Shown here: positions 1-20,557 of the stretch, in pieces
Layout: each line of letters opens with the position of its first letter
Numbering within the stretch: position 1 is the first letter of the stretch
From: Flavobacteriales bacterium
GTDB lineage: Bacteria; Bacteroidota; Bacteroidia; Flavobacteriales_F; PHOS-HE28
Reading direction: 5' to 3'
DNA: 64,000 nucleotides
Assembly: GCA_016717305.1 (NCBI GenBank)
Contig: JADKFY010000002.1
Location: 346,351 to 410,350 of the forward strand
Made by a program: the position numbers and the translations under genes
Notes under the pieces: model-generated
The model's input: the letters and a program-made list of their open reading frames with translations, nothing else
Told to the model about the DNA's origin: nothing
The model's database searches: none

Positions 1-3000
1 TGGCCACGCTGAGTTGCGGCCCGTTGTTGGCGGCGATGCTGCATCCTGTCGGCAGGCGCTTGGCGATATCCGCTTCAGCTGCGCGAATGCTCAACATGGA
101 ACCGCTCGGCAACGCCTGCATCATTTTGCCTCGGTTCGCCACGAGGGTGACCGCATCCTTGAGCGAGAACACACCTGCCAAACAAGCGGCTGCGAACTCG
201 CCGATGCTGTGGCCCATCATGGCCTCGGGTACAATGCCCCAATGCATCCACAATTTGGCCAAGCTGTAATGCATGGTGAAGAGCGATGCCTGCGTGTACA
301 CCGTTTGCTTCAACTGTTCGGCAACTTCCTCTTCCTTGCCTTTCGAGGGGAAGACTATGGACTTGAGATCAACGCCCAATTCGGCATTGAACAGGCCGAT
401 GCATTCATCGAAATGCTGTGCGAAATTTGGTTCACTTTCGTACAGGTCGCGCCCCATGTTCACGTACTGCGAACCTTGCCCCGGGAACATGAACACCACG
501 CCCGGCGCGGCTTCGTGCAATTCACGTGTGGATATCGCGGCAACATCTTTGTTCGCAATGGCATCGATCACCTCCTGGTGCGTACCCCCCACGATCACCC
601 TTCTGTGCTTGAACGATCGCCTTCCTACTTTCAGGGTGTAGGCAGCATCAGCCATAGAGGCATCAGGGTTCTTTTCGAGCCAGGTCCGCAGGTTTTCGGT
701 CATGGCATCCAAGCTCACTTTGGTCTTGGCGCTCAAAAAGAACACCTGCTTACCACGTGAATTGCTGGAAGGTACGGGGAGTGGTCCTTCACCCAGGATC
801 ACATGGGCGTTGGTGCCGCCGACCCCGAAAGAAGAAATCCCAGCGACGCGAGGTTTGGAACCACGGGGCCATTTAATGTTCTCATTGGCCACACGGAATG
901 GGCTGTTCTCCAGATCGATCGCCGGGTTGGGCTTCTCAAAACCGAAGTTTGATGGGATCATACCCCGTTGTAACGCCAAGGCCGTTTTGATCACACCTGC
1001 TGCACCTGCAGCGGCCGTGAGGTGGCCGATGTTGCTCTTGACCGAACCGATCGCACACCAATGCGGATCGCTACTGTTCGGAGCATCAACTCCTTTGAAT
1101 GCAAGCGTGAGTGCTTCCACTTCAATGGGGTCGCCCAAAGGGGTGGCGGTGCCGTGCGTTTCCACGTAGGTGATCTCCGAGGCTTGCACGCCTGCATCGG
1201 CCTGTGCCATGGCGATCACGTCTGCTTGGCCGCGAACGCTAGGTGCGGTGAAGCTTGCCTTTTCACTGCCGTCGTTGTTCAACGCGCTTCCTTTTACGGT
1301 GGCGTAGATGTGGTCATTGTCGCGAATTGCATCGTCCAATCTTTTCAGGACGATGATGCCGACCCCATCGCTGAAGCTGGTCCCTTTTCCATTGGCATCG
1401 AAGGTGCGTGTGCTGCCATCAGGGCTATACATGCCGCCGTCGTTGTACACGATGCCGCTGTTGAAGGGCACGGTCAGTGCGATGCCGCCCGCCAGCGCCA
1501 TGTCGCACTCGCCATCGCGCAGTGCCTTGAACGCTTGTGCGATCGCCACCAGCGATGTGCTGCACGCCGTGTGGATGCTCAAAGCAGGGCCACGCAAGTC
1601 GAATTCGAAAGCCAGGCGCGTGGCGATGTAATCCTTCTCGTTGCCGGTCATTACCTGGAATTCGCCCACCTGTTCGATCAGTTCAGGATGGCCGATCACG
1701 TTCTTCGTGAAGTAGGTGTTGTTGCCCATGCCGGCGTACACGCCGATCAACCCGTCAAATTGAGCGGGGTCGTAAGCGGCATCTTCCAACGCGCCCCAAG
1801 CGGTTTCCATGAACACGCGTTGCTGCGGGTCCATCAAGGCGGCCACCCGGGGATTGATCCCGAAGAAACCAGCATCGAACTTGTCCGCATCGGTGATCAC
1901 GCCGCGAGCGGGCACGTAGTCCGGATCGTTCTTAACGGCATCGGGAATGCTCGGGTCCAATTGGTCCTTGGTCCAGGTGGAAACACCATTCTTTTTGTCC
2001 AGCAGGTTCTGCCAGAGTTCTTCCACGTTCTCAGCACCTGGGAATCGCCCTTTCATGCCGATGATGGCGATCTCGCTGCGACGTTTTTCGGTGATGGCGG
2101 CCTGGCGTGTGCGGGCCATTTCGGCGGGCGAAATGCCGCTGTTGCCTCCTGTCAGGAATTCCGCGCAGGCACGGATCGTAGGGTGTTGGTAGAGCTTCAC
2201 GATCGGGAGTTCGAATCCGCGTGATTCCAATTGGGCCACGCATTGGATACTGAGCAGTGAATTTCCGCCGAGGTCGAAGAAATTATCATCGATCCCCACT
2301 TTGTCAATGCCGAGCAGACTGGCCCAAACGGCAGCAACGGCTTCTTCCAGTTGGGAAGTGGGTCGTGCGTAGGGGATATCCAGGTCCGGCCTTTTGATAT
2401 CCGGTGCTGGCAACCCTTTGCGATCGATCTTACCACTTGGGGTACGCGGTAGTTCCGGCACTTTCACGAACGCACTGGGCACCATGTAATCGGGCAGCAA
2501 AGCGCCCAAGTGCTTGCGCAGGTCGTTTGTGGAAACGTGTTCCGTGGCTACGAAGTACCCGACCAAACGCTTAAGGCCGGGTGTGTCTTCACGCACGGTC
2601 GTTACTGCTTGTTGCACCAGCGGATGCTTCTCCAAGGCCACTTCCACCTCGCCCAGTTCAATACGATAACCGCGGACCTTCACTTGACCATCCATTCGAC
2701 CTTTGTAGTCTATGTTGCCGTCGGGCAATTCCACAGCGCGGTCGCCAGTGCGGTACAAGCGGCCTCCTAGGGTGAACGGGTCAGCAAGGAAGCGCTCTGC
2801 TGTAAGGTCTTCTCGATTGATGTAGCCAGCAGCCACACAAGCGCCACCCAAGAACAGTTCGCCTTCCACCTCTTTCTGGACCGGCTGCATGGAATCGTCC
2901 AGGATGAGCAATTTGACATGGTCGATGGCCTGACCGATCGTTGGAAGGCTGGGCCATGATGCGGGATCCCCTTTCAGTTCAAGTTCGCTGACCACATGGC

Positions 3001-3919
3001 CTTCTGTGGGGCCATACTGGTTGCAGAAACGGCACCCGGGAAGTTGGTTGAACAGTTCGGTGATGGCAGGGGTGATCTTCAACTGCTCGCCACTGGTGAA
3101 CACTTCCCGTAAGGAGGTCGGCACTTCGCCGGTACGCTGAACGGCCTCGGCCAGGTATTGGAGTGCCACGAAAGGCACAATGATGCGGTTGATCCCTTCG
3201 GCGATGATCTTCCGCAGGAGTTGGCTGCTGTTCAATCGATCTTCGTCGGTGATAAGGACCAAGGTCCCGCCTTGGGCGAACGTCGTGAAGAGCTCTTGGA
3301 ACGAAACGTCGAAGCTGATGGGGGCGAATTGCAGGGTCTTGGCGCCTTCGTTCAACACGGAAGTGCGCAGCTGCCATTTGATCAGGTTGATCAGCGGAGC
3401 ATGATGCATGGCCACACCCTTCGGCCTGCCGGTGCTGCCTGAAGTGAATAGTACGTAGCACAGATCATCCGGATCCGTTTCGCGCAACTCCATCTTGTTA
3501 GAGGCTGCGGCATTGTCGAGTGCCAATTCTTCGATCAGTAGGACCTTCGCTTTGGAGCCAGCGAAAAGGTGAGCGTGAGCTCTATCGGTGATCACTACTG
3601 GCGGGGCCGCATCCTCCAGCATCAGGGCAATTCGTTCGGAAGGATAGGTCGGGTCGATGGGCACATAAGCCGCACCAGCCCTCAGAATGCCTAGAACGGA
3701 TTTTATCAGATCCGGGGACCTCTCCAAGCAGATGCCTACCGTCCGGTCTTCACCTGAGACCATTGGGGATATGAGAATGGCAAGGCGCTCAGCCTGTTCC
3801 TTTAGCGCTGAATACGAAACGCCATCGGTTCCAAATTGAAGTGCGATCCTTTCACCGTGCACCGAGGCGGTGTGCTCAAAGAATTCATTGACGGAGCGAA
3901 TTGGTCCAGCTACTTTCAT
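1..3919 (-). CDS. Hybrid NRPS-PKS megasynthase, N-terminal part (adenylation - PCP - ketosynthase - acyltransferase ...); runs off the window start
   Basis: Hand translation of the reverse strand from the ATG at 3919 (TAA stop immediately upstream) gives one open frame to position 1. It carries AMP-binding core motifs (LFTSGSTGRPKGV, YRTGD, GRMDGQVKVRGYRIELGEVE, PDYMVP, PSGKIDRK), a PCP motif (FFDLGGNSLL), a KS start (IAIIGMKGRFPGA) with the active-site TACSTS region, and AT motifs (FMFPGQGSQY ... GHSIGE). The ORF track misses it only because it is open-ended. Confidence 0.85.
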   Translation of the reverse strand, partial: MKVAGPIRSVNEFFEHTASVHGERIALQFGTDGVSYSALKEQAERLAILISPMVSGEDRTVGICLERSPDLIKSVLGILRAGAAYVPIDPTYPSERIALMLEDAAPPVVITDRAHAHLFAGSKAKVLLIEELALDNAAASNKMELRETDPDDLCYVLFTSGSTGRPKGVAMHHAPLINLIKWQLRTSVLNEGAKTLQFAPISFDVSFQELFTTFAQGGTLVLITDEDRLNSSQLLRKIIAEGINRIIVPFVALQYLAEAVQRTGEVPTSLREVFTSGEQLKITPAITELFNQLPGCRFCNQYGPTEGHVVSELELKGDPASWPSLPTIGQAIDHVKLLILDDSMQPVQKEVEGELFLGGACVAAGYINREDLTAERFLADPFTLGGRLYRTGDRAVELPDGNIDYKGRMDGQVKVRGYRIELGEVEVALEKHPLVQQAVTTVREDTPGLKRLVGYFVATEHVSTNDLRKHLGALLPDYMVPSAFVKVPELPRTPSGKIDRKGLPAPDIKRPDLDIPYARPTSQLEEAVAAVWASLLGIDKVGIDDNFFDLGGNSLLSIQCVAQLESRGFELPIVKLYQHPTIRACAEFLTGGNSGISPAEMARTRQAAITEKRRSEIAIIGMKGRFPGAENVEELWQNLLDKKNGVSTWTKDQLDPSIPDAVKNDPDYVPARGVITDADKFDAGFFGINPRVAALMDPQQRVFMETAWGALEDAAYDPAQFDGLIGVYAGMGNNTYFTKNVIGHPELIEQVGEFQVMTGNEKDYIATRLAFEFDLRGPALSIHTACSTSLVAIAQAFKALRDGECDMALAGGIALTVPFNSGIVYNDGGMYSPDGSTRTFDANGKGTSFSDGVGIIVLKRLDDAIRDNDHIYATVKGSALNNDGSEKASFTAPSVRGQADVIAMAQADAGVQASEITYVETHGTATPLGDPIEVEALTLAFKGVDAPNSSDPHWCAIGSVKSNIGHLTAAAGAAGVIKTALALQRGMIPSNFGFEKPNPAIDLENSPFRVANENIKWPRGSKPRVAGISSFGVGGTNAHVILGEGPLPVPSSNSRGKQVFFLSAKTKVSLDAMTENLRTWLEKNPDASMADAAYTLKVGRRSFKHRRVIVGGTHQEVIDAIANKDVAAISTRELHEAAPGVVFMFPGQGSQYVNMGRDLYESEPNFAQHFDECIGLFNAELGVDLKSIVFPSKGKEEEVAEQLKQTVYTQASLFTMHYSLAKLWMHWGIVPEAMMGHSIGEFAAACLAGVFSLKDAVTLVANRGKMMQALPSGSMLSIRAAEADIAKRLPTGCSIAANNGPQLSVA

Positions 3920-4537
3920 GCGTTAGAGTCAAAGGTCCGTGTTTCGGGCCATACTGTAGCGTGATCGTGAATGTTCATAACCCTCAAATGGAGGATGATC
4001 TGGTACGGATCCATCAGGCAAAAAGTTCCATTCGTCGGAAAGTTCATAGGCGCTCCGAACTCATTTGACCTCGGCTCAGGAAAATGCTGATCCGTAGGAT
4101 AAAAATAGGCATTGGGCGAAATATTTGAGGAGTTGGACGTCAACATTGTTCACAACTTCATATGATCTAGTCGGTTACAATCGTTCATTGGGCGTTCAAA
4201 ATGGGTCAGTGGCAAGCAATAGAGCATTTCGAAAGGTTATCCACAATACTGGCACGGCGTGGTGTGGTCCTCTACTTTCGCGGCCTTGAACAAGGAAATT
4301 GCTTTGATCGCGACAAGTTCCAGTCTGATATTCAGGCTTTTGAAACGGTCATTGTGAGGACCTAGTACAACTCGAAGAAATCCGTCTCCCGGTCCTCATG
4401 TAACCCTAGCACGCAGTATTTCGATAAACGGACCAACCGATCCGTTCTTGTTTTTCGTTCCGATGCGCACTGCCTGGCCGCCGGAACTCAAAGGAAAGCA
4501 AGATGGTAGGTCGGATCGTTCTCCAACTTGGAACAAT

Positions 4538-7500
4538 ATGGCACGCAGTCTTCTCACCCTTTTCTTGAGCATCGTGGCCTCCTTGGTCATGTCCCAAAGC
4601 AGTTCGGAACGCGCTGCTGTTCGCTTGAACGCAACCGTACAAGCCTCCCCAGCGAGCATTACACTTTCCTGGACAGCGCTTTCCAGTACCAGTTCCATTA
4701 CAGTTTATCGTAAGTTGAAGAGTGCCACAAGCTGGGGCTCTTCGATCGCGAACCCTTCGGCCAGTGCGACCACCTGGACGGACAATAGCGTTGCTTTGGG
4801 TACGTATTACGAATACAAGGTAGTTCGTAGCTCAGGAGGCAAGACAGGCACCGGGTATGTTGCCACAGGTGTCCAAGTTGCACCGACGGATTATCGAGGT
4901 AAGTTAGTTCTCTTGGTGGACAACACCTTGGCTCCTTCGTTGGTCACCGAATTGGGCCAATTGACCCAAGACCTTCGAGCCGATGGTTGGGCCGTATTGC
5001 GAAATGATGTGGCGCGTAATGCCTCTGTGTCGAGTGTCCGAGGCATTGTCCAAGGCCACTACAACAGCGATCCGACCAACGTGAAGGCAGTGTACATTGT
5101 TGGTCACGTTCCGGTACCATACAGCGGCAACACGATGCCTGATGGGCACGCGGAATTCTTTGGTGCAAGGCCGACGGACGGTTACTATGCAGAAATGAAC
5201 GGTTCCTGGACGGACAACAGCGTGAACAATACCTCTTCGAACCGTCAAGAGAATTGGAATGTACCGGGTGATGGAAAATTCGATCAAAGCGAGTTTCCTG
5301 GTGCCATTGAACTTCAAGTTGGCCGTGTTGATATGTATGACATGCCCGCATTCTCTGCAAGTGAAGTGCAGTTGATGAAGAACTACTTGAACAAGGCACA
5401 CAGTTTCAAGCTGAAAGGATGGGCGCCTACCGCCCGTGGGCTCCAGTTCGATAACCTGCAATGGGTAGCGGACCCGCTCGCAGCGGGTGGCTGGAGGAAC
5501 CTTGCACCATTGGTGGGGAATAGTAATATAACTGAACTTGCTCCGTACGGTGCGTCTTTCGGGTCCATGGTAAATAACCAGAGCTACTTGTGGACGAATT
5601 GCAGTTCAGGTGGTCTGTTGGATTTCCAGAACAATTTGTGGCTTTTCATTGGTCAGGACAATGCCGCGATCACCTCGGAACTTGCCACGACCATCTCTGT
5701 GGGTGGTGTCTTCAACATGGGCTTGGGCAGCTACTATGATGATTTCGACAACAAGAACAACTACCTGCGTGCATTGATCGCACGCGGCGATGCCTTGACC
5801 AACTGTTGGTCCGGAATTCCGACGTGGTATTTCCACCATATGGGCATGGGTGACAACATCGGGTACAGCACCATGGTCTCCATGAACAACACAAGCGTGT
5901 ATGCTCCGCTGCACGATGGGTGGCAGTCCAGCATTGGCCACACGCATATCAATTTGATGGGTGACCCCTCGTTGCGCATGAAAATGGTTGCCCCACCTAC
6001 CGCGCTGGTGATCAGCAATTCCGGTGGGCACCCAGCTTTCAGTTGGACGGCATCCACCGAGAGCGTGCTAGGTTACCATGTTTACCAGATCGAAACATCC
6101 GGGTCGGTCACCCGACTAACGACGACGCCCGTCACAACGACCAACTATTCCGATCCCGCGATTCCTTATCAGTCCGGGCGTGAGTACATGGTACGTGCCG
6201 TGAAATTGGAGACGAATTACAGTGGTAGTTACTACAATTTGTCACTTGGTGCAATGGCCACTGCTCCTGGGGGAGCACAGCCGGATTGCTTGGGTGTTTC
6301 CGGCGGAACTGCCACCCCCGGTACTTCCTGCAATGATGGCAACGCGAACACGATCAACGACGTTTGGAGCAATAGCTGCAACTGTACCGGAACACCTGTT
6401 GTTTTTGACTGCCTCGGTGTAGCTAACGGAGCCGCCACTCCAGGTACTTCGTGCAACGATGGCAATTCGAACACGATCAACGATGTTTGGAGCAACAATT
6501 GCAACTGTACCGGAACACCTGTTGTTTTTGACTGCCTCGGAGTTGCTAACGGAGCCGCCACCCCTGGTACGTCCTGCAATGATGGCAATTCGAACACGAT
6601 CAACGACGTTTGGAGCAACAGCTGCAACTGTACCGGAACACCTGTTGTTTTTGACTGCCTCGGTGTAGCTAACGGAGCCGCCACCCCTGGTACTTCGTGC
6701 AATGATGGCAATGCGAACACGATCAACGACGTATGGAGCAACAATTGCAACTGTACCGGAACACCTGTTGTTTTTGACTGCCTCGGTGTAGCCAACGGAG
6801 CCGCCACCCCAGGTACTTCGTGCAATGATGGCAATGCGAACACGATCAACGATGTATGGAGCAACAATTGCAACTGTACCGGAACACCTGTTGTTTTTGA
6901 CTGCCTCGGTGTAGCCAACGGAGCCGCCACCCCAGGTACTTCGTGCAATGATGGCAATGCGAACACGATCAACGACGTATGGAGCAACAATTGCAACTGC
7001 ACCGGAATACCAGTGGTTTACGATTGCCTGAGTGTACCGAATGGTCCTGCCGTGCCAGGAACCGGCTGTAACGATGGCGACCCTAATACGACCAATGACG
7101 TATGGAGCAACAACTGCAATTGTGCGGGGATCCCGGTTGTTTACGATTGCCTAAGTGTACCGAATGGTCCTGCGATGCCAGGAACAAGTTGTAACGATGG
7201 TGACCCCAATACGACCAACGATACATGGAGCAACAACTGCAATTGTGCCGGCACTCCTGTTACGCAAGATTGTTTGGGTGTACCCAATGGCACGGCCCTA
7301 CCAGGTACTTCGTGCAATGACGGCAACGCCAACACGATCAACGATGTTTGGAGCAACGGATGCGCCTGCGCCGGAACGCCAGTTGTCTTTGATTGCCTCG
7401 GCGTTGCCAACGGAACTGCAATACCCGGTGTATCTTGCGATGATGGTGATACACAAACGACCAACGACGTTTGGAGCAACAACTGCAATTGCGTAGGGAT

Positions 7501-9604
7501 ACCTGTTGTATTCGATTGCGCAGGTGTTGCGAATGGTCCGGCGCTACCTGGAACGCCATGCAATGACGAGAACTCGGCCACGGGCAACGACCAGTGGAAC
7601 GCGAACTGCCAATGTGTTGGTCAGTTGATCGATTGCACGGGCACAGCTGGTGGTCCAGCATTGATCGGCACGCCTTGCAACGACAACAATGCGAACACGA
7701 TCAACGATGTGTGGGGCAGTAACTGCAATTGTGCTGGCACTCCTGTTCCTCAAGATTGTTTGGGCGTACCGAATGGCGCGGCCTTGCCAGGAACACCATG
7801 CGATGATGGGGACGTGAACACGACCAACGACGTTTGGAGCAACAACTGCAATTGCGTTGGAATACCTGTTGTTCTCGATTGCGTAGGTGTTGCGAATGGT
7901 CCGGCCCTACCTGGAACGCCATGCAATGACGAGAGCTCGGCCACGGGCAACGACCAGTGGAACGCGAGCTGCCAATGTGTTGGTCAGTTGATCGACTGCA
8001 CGGGCACAGCTGGTGGTCCAGCATTGATCGGCACACCATGCAACGACAACAATGCGAACACCACGGGTGATGTTTGGAACAACAACTGCAATTGCGTAGG
8101 GATACCTGTTGTATTCGATTGCGCAGGTGTTGCGAATGGTCCGGCCCTACCTGGAACGCCATGCAATGACGAGAACTCGGCCACGGGCAACGACCAGTGG
8201 AACGCGAGCTGCCAATGTGTTGGTCAGCTGATCGACTGCACGGGCACAGCTGGTGGTCCAGCATTGATCGGCACGCCATGCAACGACAACAATGCGAACA
8301 CCACGGGCGATGTATGGAACAGCAACTGCAATTGCGTTGGAATACCTGTTGTATTCGATTGCGCAGGTGTTGCGAATGGACCTGCCCTACCTGGAACGCC
8401 ATGCAATGACGAGAACTCGGCCACGGGCAACGACCAGTGGAACGCGAACTGCCAATGTGTTGGTCAGTTGATCGATTGCACGGGCACAGCTGGTGGTCCA
8501 GCATTGATCGGCACGCCATGCAACGACAACAATGCGAACACCACGGGCGATGTATGGAACAGCAACTGCAATTGCGTTGGAATACCTGTTGTTCTCGATT
8601 GCGTAGGTGTTGCGAATGGTCCGGCGCTACCTGGAACGCCATGCAATGACGAGAACTCGGCCACGGGCAACGACCAGTGGAACGCGAGCTGCCAATGTGT
8701 TGGTCAGTTGATCGACTGCACGGGCACAGCTGGTGGTCCAGCATTGATCGGCACGCCATGCAACGACAACAATGCGAACACCACGGGCGATGTATGGAAC
8801 AGCAACTGCAATTGCGTAGGGATACCTGTTGTATTCGATTGCGCAGGCGTTGCGAATGGTCCGGCCCTACCAGGCACGCAGTGCAATGACGAGAACTCGG
8901 CCACGGGCAATGACCAGTGGAGCGCGAACTGCCAGTGTGTTGGTCAGTTGATCGACTGCACGGGCACAGCAGGTGGTCCAGCACTTCCAGGAACCCCCTG
9001 TGATGATGATGATGCCACTACGGTAGGCGATGTATGGTCCACGAACTGCAATTGCTCAGGATCTGCGTTGCCACCCCCGGCGGATTGCGCGGGTGTTGCA
9101 GGTGGTAGTGCCTTCCTGGATGACTGTGGAACATGCGCTGGTGGATCAACAGGGATCGTACCTAATGCAGATGTGGACTTCGATGACCTTATCCCGTGCG
9201 AGGATAATTGCAGCGGGGTCTGGAATCCGCAGCAAACGGATTATGATGAGGACAACATCGGTGATGCCTGTGACAATTGTGTGTGGGTCTACAACCCGTC
9301 CCAAGCCGATGAGGACGGGAACGGTATCGGTGATGCGTGTGATGTACGAGTTGGGATCGCCGAGTTGACCGATGGTTCCAATTTCGGTTTCTTCCCCAAC
9401 CCGACCAATGGCAATGTGAACATGGTATGCACGGTCGCTGGAGCACGAATGCTCAAGTTCTACAATGCAGTGGGTGCCTTGGTCTTTGAGGCCCCAGTTC
9501 GGAAACAAATGGATCTCCGCGAACTTGCGATGGGGGTCTACACGGTGCTTGTGCTGGATGCGGAAGGCAGCCCGCTGGCACAGACGAGGCTCGTTCGCCA
9601 ATAA
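4538..9604 (+). CDS. Giant secreted T9SS cargo protein: signal peptide, FN3-like domain, gingipain (C25)-like domain, about 24 tandem 40-aa Cys-rich repeats, thrombospondin-type-3-like Ca-binding repeats, T9SS C-terminal sorting domain
   Basis: Track ORF 4448..9604; the likely true start is the Met of [21 protein letters not shown] (signal peptide). N-terminal region shows C25-like landmarks ([11 protein letters not shown] ..., ELQVGRVD, ... [10 protein letters not shown]). The repeat consensus is [41 protein letters not shown]. The Ca-binding repeats read [14 protein letters not shown] / [12 protein letters not shown]. The C-terminus [12 protein letters not shown] ... [23 protein letters not shown] is a type-A T9SS sorting domain. 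Confidence 0.8.
6281..9060. repeat. Coding tandem repeat array, 120-bp period (40 aa, 4 Cys per unit), about 24 units
   Basis: Directly visible 120-nt periodicity. The first six units are nearly identical. The minus-strand long ORFs 6232..7002 and 7701..8984 are artefacts of this periodicity. Confidence 0.9.
7860..8990. repeat. Near-identical 240-bp super-repeats (two alternating 40-aa repeat variants), about 5 copies
   Basis: Units beginning ATACCTGTTGT(A/T)TTCGATTGCG... at about 7872, 8102, 8342, 8582 and 8822 differ by only a handful of nucleotides. A diverged copy lies at about 7499. Confidence 0.85.
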
Positions 9605-17959: not shown

Positions 17960-20557
17960 TCAACGCCCTTGACGTAGCACTTCCACACGTTGGGTGTGGA
18001 TGGACGGGCCTTGTTGGATCTGCAAGAGATATACCCCTTCGGCAAGTGCCGAGAGGTCCATGGAGACCATTTCAGCATTCCCTTGCACGCTATGGGCGAG
18101 TCGCCCTTGAAGATCGAGGATGGAAATGGACGAACGTGTACTTGCGGGCAGGATCAGAGTCAATTTCCCGGAGGTCGGATTGGGATACAACATCACCTCG
18201 GTCGGAACGAGTTCTTCAAGGTCAGTGCTGGTGTCGATGATGATGCCATAGTCTTCAGTTTCCCCGTACACATAGTTGAAGCATGGATCGGTAGGGGATG
18301 GTTCGGTTCCTAGATGGAAAACGCCCCGGACTCTCATCCGAGTAGAACCAAGGACGGCATTGACCGGCACATTGAACGCCATGGAAACGACCTGGCCGGC
18401 CGCTGTTGTAGCCACCTCGCCGAGCTTCTCGGAAGCCTCAAAAACATCATCTTGATCGTAATCTATCCAAGCTGCATAGTTGTCCGCCTCGTATGAACCT
18501 CCTTCAATGAACAAGGTCTGGTCGGTGCCGACCCCGATCGGGGTGAATTGCGTGGCTACATAATTGTTGTAGGTCGGCCCATCGGTACCTCCTGTATTGC
18601 TGTTGTTGATCGCTGCGAGTTCCACGCCGTTGATATAATCACCATCCGCAGGGCCTGTAAGGGATGTTGGAATGCAAGGGCCTGCGATGGGAGTAGTGAT
18701 GGTGATCCCGTAATCCTCGGTCTCGCCATATGCGTAGTTGAAACAAGGATCGGTCGGTGTTGGTTCCCCGGTCCCGTGGTACACACCACGGACACGCAAA
18801 GTCGTTGTGCCCAAAGTAGCACCTGCAGGAACTAGGAAGTTGATCGCCTGTGTTTCACCGACAGTTGTAGTAGCAAATTCGCCCAGTTTCTCGGAAGCCT
18901 CGAAACTGTCGTCCTGATCGTAATCGATCCACGCTGCATAATTGTCGGGCTGAAAGTCGCCTGATGTAATAAAGATGGTTTGGTTGCTACCCCGGGCCAA
19001 CGAAGTGCTGAAGGAAGAAGTGTAGTTGGTATACGTCGGTCCGGTATTGCTGCCGCTGTTCACATTGTTGATCGTAACCAATTGCACCCCGTCGATGAAG
19101 TCGTCATCCGCTGTGCCATTCGCCGATGTGGGGATACAGGGACCAGTTACGGGCGTGGTGATCGTGATCCTGTAATCTTCCGTTTCACCAAAAGCATAGT
19201 TGAAGCAGGGGTCCGTCGGCGTTGGTTCTCCAGTGTTATGATAGACACCTCTTACCCTCAGGACGGTGTTGCCCAATGCAGCCCCGGCGGGTACCACGAA
19301 GTTTATCGCCTGCACTTGACCGATCGCGGTGGTTGCGAATTCACCGAGTTTCTCTGAAGCCTCAAAGGTCTCATCACCATCATAGTCGATCCATGCAGCG
19401 TAGTTGTCAGGTTGGTAATCTCCTGCAGTGATGGTTATGGTTTGATTACTGCCGCGTACCAATGAGGCTGAAAGAGTAGCAGTATAGTCGGTATAGCTCG
19501 GCCCGGTATTGCTGCCACTGTTCACGTTATTGATCGTACCCAATTGCACGCCATCAATGAAATCATCTTGGGTGGTCCCGGAGGTTGATGTGGGTATGCA
19601 GTAACCGGTCGGGGTGGATTGGCACGCATTGGTGTTCAGCAATTGGCTACGTACCCCGGTAAGGACACCGGCCATATAGCTGGACTGTTGATTGGTGAAC
19701 ATGCGTGTGCAGCTCGCGTAGTCCATGAAATTCTCATACTGCGTTAATGTCCCGCACTTCATTAGGTTCGTGTTCGAGCAGGAATAAGTTGGGCTGTCCG
19801 TGGTTGGTGTATCGGCGAAGCCATCCGCGTTAACGCAACCACCGTCATCATCGAAGGTGTGCTGGAGGCCGAAGTAGTGCCCGATCTCATGCGTGGCCGT
19901 GCGGTCGCCAGGTTCCGTTCCGTAGTCGTAGTCGATCACCAATCCATCAATGTTGCTTCCCACCACGCCACCAACTGGCAAGTACGCATAGCCCACGGTA
20001 ATGAAGCCACCTGTGGCACCACTTGCGATGTCGCATATCCAGATGTTCAAATAACGATCCGTGTCCCATGGAGCACGGCCATCGGGAGCCGATTTCATAT
20101 CGTTTGTCTCCGTGTCAGGATCGAACCACGTTTGTGTCGTTTGTGTTCGCGTGATCCCTGTGGTGGCAGCTCCGTTCGGGTCCACTTGGGCAAGGCAGAA
20201 GTTGAAACCGACATTCCCAATGCTGCTTGTAAATTGGGAACGCACACTTCCGATGTCCGTATTGCTCGCGGAATAGTCCGCGTTCAATTCGTCGATGATC
20301 GCTTGGATGGTTCCAGTGGAAACGTTTTCGGGGGTGGTATTGTAGACAACATGGACCACAACGGGAACGGTGTACGTGCCACCGCGCTGGACAAGATCAA
20401 CCCGGGGTAATGCATCAAGAAGGTTGGTGGACAAGCCTTGCGACTGCAAGTACTGTTGCGTGTGCTTCTGTGCACTGCAGGTCCGGTGTTGTTGGGACTG
20501 GGCATTCAAGACCGCAGCGGTGAACAGCAGGCCTCCGAGAAGTATGGTTCGTGTCAT
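17960..20557 (-). CDS. Secreted zinc metalloprotease (metzincin, M43/cytophagalysin-like) with three GEVED domains and T9SS C-terminal sorting domain
   Basis: HEIGHYFGLQHTF is the HExxHxxGxxH metzincin motif. Three repeats of about 125 aa each end in (F/Y)GE(T/V)EDY(R/G)ITI, the GEVED-domain signature. The C-terminus MLYPNPTSGKLTLIL ... GVYLLQIQQGPSIHTQRVEVLRQGR is a T9SS sorting domain. Signal peptide at the N-terminus. Confidence 0.85.
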   Translation of the reverse strand: MTRTILLGGLLFTAAVLNAQSQQHRTCSAQKHTQQYLQSQGLSTNLLDALPRVDLVQRGGTYTVPVVVHVVYNTTPENVSTGTIQAIIDELNADYSASNTDIGSVRSQFTSSIGNVGFNFCLAQVDPNGAATTGITRTQTTQTWFDPDTETNDMKSAPDGRAPWDTDRYLNIWICDIASGATGGFITVGYAYLPVGGVVGSNIDGLVIDYDYGTEPGDRTATHEIGHYFGLQHTFDDDGGCVNADGFADTPTTDSPTYSCSNTNLMKCGTLTQYENFMDYASCTRMFTNQQSSYMAGVLTGVRSQLLNTNACQSTPTGYCIPTSTSGTTQDDFIDGVQLGTINNVNSGSNTGPSYTDYTATLSASLVRGSNQTITITAGDYQPDNYAAWIDYDGDETFEASEKLGEFATTAIGQVQAINFVVPAGAALGNTVLRVRGVYHNTGEPTPTDPCFNYAFGETEDYRITITTPVTGPCIPTSANGTADDDFIDGVQLVTINNVNSGSNTGPTYTNYTSSFSTSLARGSNQTIFITSGDFQPDNYAAWIDYDQDDSFEASEKLGEFATTTVGETQAINFLVPAGATLGTTTLRVRGVYHGTGEPTPTDPCFNYAYGETEDYGITITTPIAGPCIPTSLTGPADGDYINGVELAAINNSNTGGTDGPTYNNYVATQFTPIGVGTDQTLFIEGGSYEADNYAAWIDYDQDDVFEASEKLGEVATTAAGQVVSMAFNVPVNAVLGSTRMRVRGVFHLGTEPSPTDPCFNYVYGETEDYGIIIDTSTDLEELVPTEVMLYPNPTSGKLTLILPASTRSSISILDLQGRLAHSVQGNAEMVSMDLSALAEGVYLLQIQQGPSIHTQRVEVLRQGR

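Follow-up and report, generated by a model that had tools for sequence, protein, structure and literature searches.

Periscope Proteins are surface proteins with stalks of highly identical tandem domains, the number of which is altered by intragenic recombination (PMC8201768, PMC9704523). The folds listed for the class have 50–165 residues, and reliable counts of the repeats need long reads (PMC8201768, PMC9704523). Neither the type IX secretion system (T9SS) nor the Bacteroidota is mentioned in these two publications. PMC9704523 also cites the streptococcal M protein for size variation through intragenic repeats. The gene described here lies in a 64,000 nucleotide (nt) stretch of DNA, called the window below, from an uncultured activated-sludge Flavobacteriales bacterium (contig JADKFY010000002.1, positions 346,351–410,350), and carries an array of near-identical 240-nt repeats. 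The array very probably forms part of the stalk of a surface protein that is secreted by the T9SS, anchored at the outer membrane and variable in length through recombination of its repeats. As in the Periscope Proteins, the sequence predicts a single-chain exported protein with a head at the N-terminus and a signal for attachment to the surface at the C-terminus, the two being separated by a stalk of tandem domains with highly identical DNA sequences. SasG/Aap display alternating G5 and E sub-domains, and the alternation of two unit types, A and B, in the stalk of the window protein recalls this arrangement. The window protein differs from the described Periscope Proteins in its predicted T9SS anchor and in its origin from an environmental, non-pathogenic member of the Bacteroidota. 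Unlike the listed folds, its Cys-rich module has only 39–41 amino acids (aa) and gives no match in Pfam or the PDB, and two defining features of the class, rod-like behaviour and population-level length change, are putative for it.

The complete gene (4538–9604, plus strand) encodes 1688 aa plus stop and is the largest open reading frame of the window. An open reading frame called mechanically, 4448–9604, starts at a TTG codon at 4448; the ATG at 4538 was picked by inspecting the translation, as it precedes a signal-peptide-like stretch, and the resemblance of the N-terminus to a signal peptide is likewise by inspection only. An earlier note on this DNA called the gene giant, but at 5.07 kb it is better termed large. 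The stalk consists of 23 consecutive units (6320–9124), either of A type with 41 aa or of B type with 39 aa, so that the basic period is 123/117 nt (41/39 codons), and the reading frame is unbroken through all of them. Units were delimited by a conserved motif, G-x-x-C-[ND]-D, at which the translation was cut. This leaves 22 of the 23 scorable, the last (unit 23) having no defined end.

Tandem Repeats Finder (TRF) reports a 240-nt period at 7828–8983 with 4.8 copies, 95% matches, 0% indels and a score of 2067. In codon register the array (7790–8989, plus strand, units 13–22) consists of five dimers of exactly 240 nt, each an A unit of 41 aa followed by a B unit of 39 aa, at 7790–8029, 8030–8269, 8270–8509, 8510–8749 and 8750–8989. 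Thus the near-identical units of about 240 nt proposed in the earlier note are present and two variants do alternate; however, the variants have 41 and 39 aa and not 40 aa each. A difference matrix of the dimers shows that the inner three differ pairwise at 8–11 of 240 nt. Dimer 1 differs from the others at 21–40 nt and dimer 5 at 19–40 nt. Exact repeats 720 nt apart point to a higher-order duplication of three dimers.

The 240-nt array is one of two homogenised segments of the stalk. Block 1 (6320–6934, plus strand), which the earlier note did not contain, consists of five near-identical 123-nt units of the 41-aa A type. These are 90–99% identical, units 4 and 5 showing 99% identity with a 122-nt exact repeat at 6731 and 6854. 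The high DNA identity of both segments (4.8 copies at 95% and 90–99%) is a feature shared with the Periscope Proteins. Units 6–10 (6935–7549, plus strand) are A-type units of 123 nt as well, but in the unit identity table they are mutually just 64–79% identical, and the contrast that had been drawn with positions 7000–7500 therefore stands, with a period of 123/117 nt in place of 120 nt. Unit B11 (7550–7666, plus strand) and a diverged A12 (7667–7789) follow. B11 lies outside the 240-nt array, yet it is 100% identical to B18 (8393–8509), 843 nt away. The identity is part of an exact repeat, at 7544 and 8387, which with 131 nt is the longest in the window strain, and the A units that flank B11 and B18 are only 72–76% identical. 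Array-like sequence therefore begins earlier than the 7860 first proposed. Unit 23 (8990–9124, plus strand) is, by the unit table, a terminal, degenerate, Cys-rich unit. No paralogue of the repeat gene is found elsewhere in the 64,000 nt.

The near-identity extends to silent sites. Synonymous divergence (dS) is 0.10–0.19 between the inner dimers, 0.036 between units 4 and 5, and 0 between B11 and B18, whereas it is saturated (>1.2) between units 6–10 of the same gene. The ratio of nonsynonymous to synonymous divergence (dN/dS) in the array is about 0.06–0.16, and each repeat copy is under purifying selection. For calibration, dS in the non-repetitive head is 0.03 when the window is compared with a contig of the same species and 0.53 when it is compared with a sister lineage. 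By this measure, most homogenisation took place after the split from the sister lineage and mostly before the present strains diverged. The expansion described in the earlier note as recent is thus recent in a relative sense only.

Shared variants are distributed among the five dimers without a consistent order. Nine parsimony-informative columns support four conflicting groupings, {1,2}, {1,4}, {2,5} and {3,5}, and 17 of 36 informative column pairs are incompatible in the four-gamete test, so the dimer copies are a mosaic. Private differences number 17, 2, 3, 1 and 14 for dimers 1 to 5. The diverged edge dimers (17 and 14) show the edge effect that is classic for arrays in which unequal exchange keeps the copies alike. 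The mosaic copies and the edge effect support the unequal crossing-over that the earlier note had suggested, and so does the relationship of the units to those of other species: all 22 scorable window units have their nearest DNA relative in their own gene, with a mean best identity of 0.918 as compared with 0.744 to other species. The same is found in L020 (40 of 40 units), L049 (34 of 35) and L040 (23 of 24), where L numbers designate homologous loci or the contigs that carry them.

Head homologues are found in uncultured Flavobacteriales, 2643 with E <0.001 among the candidates scored. In 80 genome loci, 0 to 43 Cys-rich units follow the head, and complete homologues with the same type of C-terminal tail carry 7–43 units. 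The largest counts (43, 36 and 27) are on contigs of 214–960 kb, one of them with a ‘tig’ name; from their size and this name the contigs are probably long-read. Strict 41/39 alternation is also seen in L006, L020, L023, L040 and L049, and TRF reports 240-nt periods with 3.3–19.5 copies at 85–90% identity in L006, L020, L040, L049, L074 and L078. Thus the A/B dimer is an old architecture. As units are closer within a gene than between species while the alternation is kept, the stalk shows concerted evolution. The general model of concerted evolution fits without difference in principle, with likeness within a genome, diverged edges, mosaic variants and whole-unit, in-frame gains and losses.

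In the sister lineage L092, which is 87% identical at the nt level, a run of 14 A units precedes the first B unit, and about 2.5 dimers follow. Several of the diverged middle units are one-to-one orthologous between L092 and the window, e.g. window unit 8 corresponds to L092 unit 11 at 92% identity. The homogenised blocks have been reorganised between the two. As in the Periscope Proteins, related lineages differ in repeat number, and the variation falls in the blocks with the highest identity. A different repeat of 49 aa, consisting of a Cys-rich unit plus a DSDGDG-type thrombospondin-3-like insert, is found in many family members (L003, L004, L005, L013, L054, L073 and others). Its periods are 147, 294 and 441 nt, and one stalk often mixes it with 41/39-aa units.

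A scan of one genome per species found no genome of the same species, the best match being 74% identical. Through a neighbouring sialidase-like gene, ten contigs with about 99.5% identity to the window were found in metagenomes of wastewater and other origin, and with L091 and L094, which come from the other side, 12 same-species contigs reach the repeat gene. Seven of the ten end in the 240-nt array, at window positions 8293, 8451, 8493, 8521, 8588, 8710 and 8941. In total, 8 of the 12 end in this array, one ends in the 123-nt block and one is gapped: in the metagenome-assembled genome (MAG) GCA_017995035.1, 100 Ns replace 8364–8492. Exact repeats of up to 131 nt are difficult for 150-nt reads, whereas reads of a few hundred bases are placeable. 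The assembly hazard noted earlier is thus real, but it takes the form mostly of breaks, and collapse is not proven. L081 ends at the window equivalent of 5195 and L094 at 5892, both inside the non-repetitive head; strain variation or low coverage is possible there.

Breaks of this kind also occur beyond the species. Nineteen of the 80 homologous loci run off a contig end, as against none of the 12 ‘tig’-named contigs, and by reading of the tails at least 15 of the 19 end inside the Cys-rich repeat. In L024, L026, L060, L078 and L080, which are on large contigs (three of them ‘tig’), the homologous genes stop within the repeats in tails that look frameshifted, as if indel errors had occurred in these probably long-read assemblies or the genes were real pseudogenes. 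Such a failure would be the reverse of the short-read breaks.

Two same-species contigs cross the array in shortened form. L087 (ERZ27275390) is 480 nt shorter than the window in the array, with three dimers, and stops in block 1 at 6743; L081 (ERZ27280359) is shorter by 720 nt there, with two dimers, and by a further 123 nt in block 1, where it has four units and not five. All same-species length changes are in frame. Other contigs show at least four dimers, as compared with the five of the window. The copy-number variation predicted in the earlier note holds among species (7–43 units) and for the sister lineage; among strains, the two or three dimers may be alleles or collapsed copies. We infer that they are real alleles. 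The alternative is that the array and its homogenisation are real but that the species is not polymorphic, the versions with two or three dimers or four block-1 units being collapsed assemblies, and this is possible, though clearly short of an even chance. L081 and L087 are both MEGAHIT k141 contigs, most other short-read contigs simply break in the array, and the missing material always consists of whole units between near-identical copies, which is where short-cuts in an assembly graph would arise. However, the window strain has no exact repeat longer than 131 nt, which is below k=141. In addition, L087 and L091 share a B-unit variant (GSPC...) not seen in the window, which shows that strains truly differ inside the array. 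The sister lineage and other species also clearly differ in unit number, including those on large, probably long-read contigs.

An error could lie instead in the window, which might be collapsed, expanded or blended by polishing, so that five dimers and five block-1 units match no real allele. None of the 12 same-species contigs reproduces the full arrangement, and the exact full-length protein is not on record with a start at ATG 4538 or at ATG 4463. A neighbouring M43 protease gene likewise gives no entry in the gene-position index, although the protein collection contains its sequence. However, an error in the window is unlikely in view of the independent short-read contigs that cover the array from either side. 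L091 follows the window colinearly over positions 1–8601, where it ends, at 99.24% identity with two gap openings, through units 1–18, and L082 is colinear from 8293 onward. Unit-specific variants recur exactly, units 15 and 16 being reproduced without a difference in L091 and L088, and unit 22 in L081 and L087, and an intact frame across 23 units also argues against mis-assembly. The exact neighbouring proteins MBK9762565.1 and MBK9762572.1 belong to a Flavobacteriales MAG at NCBI and lie on a contig of 439,258 bp; a contig of this length is probably long-read, and such an assembly would be able to bridge the 2.8 kb of repeats.

Strong selection on the sequence, in place of recombination or recent duplication, is a very improbable source of the near-identity: the low dN/dS and the Cys, Asp, Trp and Gly positions of the module, which are invariant across species, do indicate that the protein sequence of each unit is constrained, but selection at the protein level alone cannot account for identity at silent sites (dS 0–0.19 within blocks) when units 6–10, similarly constrained, are saturated, nor does it agree with A and B consensus sequences that are different in other species yet internally homogeneous, or with the mosaic spread of shared variants.

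The N-terminal head (4538–6319, plus strand; 594 aa) is predicted to consist of an FN3-like domain, a gingipain R-like fold and a C-terminal beta-sandwich. Its AlphaFold2 model has a mean predicted local distance difference test score (pLDDT) of 92.5 and a predicted template modelling score (pTM) of 0.91. Thus a confidently predicted head lies at the end opposite to the putative C-terminal anchor signal, again as in the Periscope Proteins. A Foldseek search of the PDB with the model gives gingipain R RgpB (4ief/1cvr) as the best hit, with E about 1e-11 (RgpB 1.2e-11), probability 1.00 and a template modelling score of 0.56–0.59 on the target. The head-family profile matches FN3 domains, in agreement with a gingipain-like fold flanked by FN3-like domains. 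RgpB, of family C25, is a T9SS cargo of Porphyromonas gingivalis, and the window protein resembles it in the predicted fold of the head and in having a putative C-terminal T9SS domain. One head-family member and one repeat-bearing protein match the gingipain family PF01364.

Unlike RgpB, the window protein shows no match to PF01364 (C25) even at E<=10, and a profile of 71 relatives finds no gingipain in the PDB. The 71-sequence head family has no invariant Cys column; the best, position 213, has a Cys in 49 of the 71, with Thr in its place in the window protein, whereas His190 is conserved in 69 of 71 and His204 in 71 of 71, these column counts being made without a structure-based residue alignment to RgpB. 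Invariant residues of the family include H204, D214, D226, D245, D249, E258, R263, D265, S398 and D402. With no C25 sequence match and no invariant Cys, a Cys-His protease is not supported, and the head may represent a non-protease or non-canonical use of the C25 fold.

An AlphaFold2 model of four stalk units (pLDDT 91.8, pTM 0.46) displays one beta-hairpin per unit. In the model the units are individually well defined, and at this pTM their mutual orientation is undefined. The stalk is followed by two thrombospondin type 3 (TSP3) repeats of the calcium-binding type (residues 1545–1604; 9170–9349, plus strand), which lie outside the flagged array. By phmmer against the PDB this segment matches thrombospondin-2 (1yo8) with E 1e-20. 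It carries DxDxDGxxDxxD-type motifs as in the calcium-binding wire of TSP/COMP. However, there are only two such repeats, placed after the array, and the 39/41-aa Cys-rich units are a different module.

The C-terminus (9392–9601, plus strand) contains a putative T9SS sorting domain (Por_Secre_tail). PF18962 matches the window protein with E 1.1e-4, and NCBIfam gives no C-terminal-domain match at E<=0.1. Homologues that share the C-terminus of the window protein have precomputed PF18962 matches, and other family members are named T9SS type A sorting domain proteins in their source records. In Porphyromonas, the type A C-terminal domain is cleaved off T9SS cargo, and anionic lipopolysaccharide is attached to the C-terminus thus created. 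By analogy with this processing, the head would be distal to the cell.

An exhaustive profile search of 1.84 billion proteins finds the module in 1629 clusters formed at 50% identity. A word-indexed protein search with four repeat units gave only 17 matches, mostly C-terminal fragments. Of six module proteins scanned, three have different heads (reprolysin, Peptidase_C25 and a galactose-binding-like domain) and three have a T9SS tail, Por_Secre_tail or CHU_C. The presence of the same module under different heads in T9SS cargo fits a modular spacer or stalk.

Taken as a recombining T9SS surface protein, the locus can be understood as follows. A string of 23 small beta-hairpin modules of disulfide type, 39 or 41 aa each, would form a stalk between the N-terminal gingipain-fold head and the C-terminal TSP3 repeats with the T9SS sorting domain. 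Surface anchoring and a rod or spacer function are what we infer for it. Intragenic homologous recombination, by unequal crossing-over and gene conversion, would keep two blocks (the five 123-nt units and the five 240-nt A+B dimers) near-identical at the DNA level and would be ongoing. It would gain or lose whole units in frame, and stalk length would thereby vary between lineages and probably between strains. Short-read assemblers are unable to thread the array and usually stop inside it because of shared exact stretches of up to 131 nt.

Several points weigh against this interpretation. The copy number of the window itself is that of an assembly and is provisional, and the contigs with two or three dimers, being MEGAHIT k141 products, could be collapsed. 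The T9SS domain is below the Pfam gathering threshold (22.8 versus 27 bits). The pTM of 0.46 for the stalk model leaves the orientation between units undefined, and rod geometry is putative. Finally, the inner dimers are 3–5% diverged, so that for most of the array the last homogenising events are not very recent when set against the divergence of strains.

Gain and loss of stalk copies by recombination is known from many bacterial surface proteins and is both ordinary and well understood; the locus is a well-documented example of it which alters no general principle. It adds an environmental, putatively T9SS-anchored case to the concept of variable-length surface proteins and draws attention to a small, uncharacterised Cys-rich stalk module. 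We suggest tentatively, the balance tipping only slightly the other way, that this may be the first described Periscope-type, T9SS-anchored, variable-length surface system in the Bacteroidota, with an undescribed 39/41-aa A/B stalk of disulfide beta-hairpins that is common to gingipain-fold, reprolysin and galactose-binding-like heads and that varies in length within activated-sludge populations. For users of genomes, gene models of large T9SS surface proteins in short-read MAGs of this Flavobacteriales family are mostly truncated or gapped in the repeat, and unit counts from short-read assemblies are not to be trusted.

Two long antisense open reading frames lie entirely inside the repeat region, one of 427 aa (7701–8984, minus strand), wholly within the repeat array, and one of 256 aa (6232–7002, minus strand). 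Both are stop-free artefacts of the repeat and were rejected as genes; opposite the first, the sense frame holds the conserved Cys pattern and has a dN/dS of 0.06–0.16. Antisense repeat frames of this type could be mis-called as genes, and several such calls are found on the MAG contig L088.

Among neighbouring genes, a partial hybrid nonribosomal peptide synthetase/polyketide synthase gene (2–3919, minus strand) runs off the left end of the window. It shows AMP-binding, PP-binding, ketoacyl-synthase and acyltransferase domains, and the product in a same-species MAG exceeds 2170 aa. A second T9SS cargo gene is found at 17960–20557 (minus strand) with M43 metallopeptidase, GEVED and Por_Secre_tail domains, from Pfam matches on same-species contigs.

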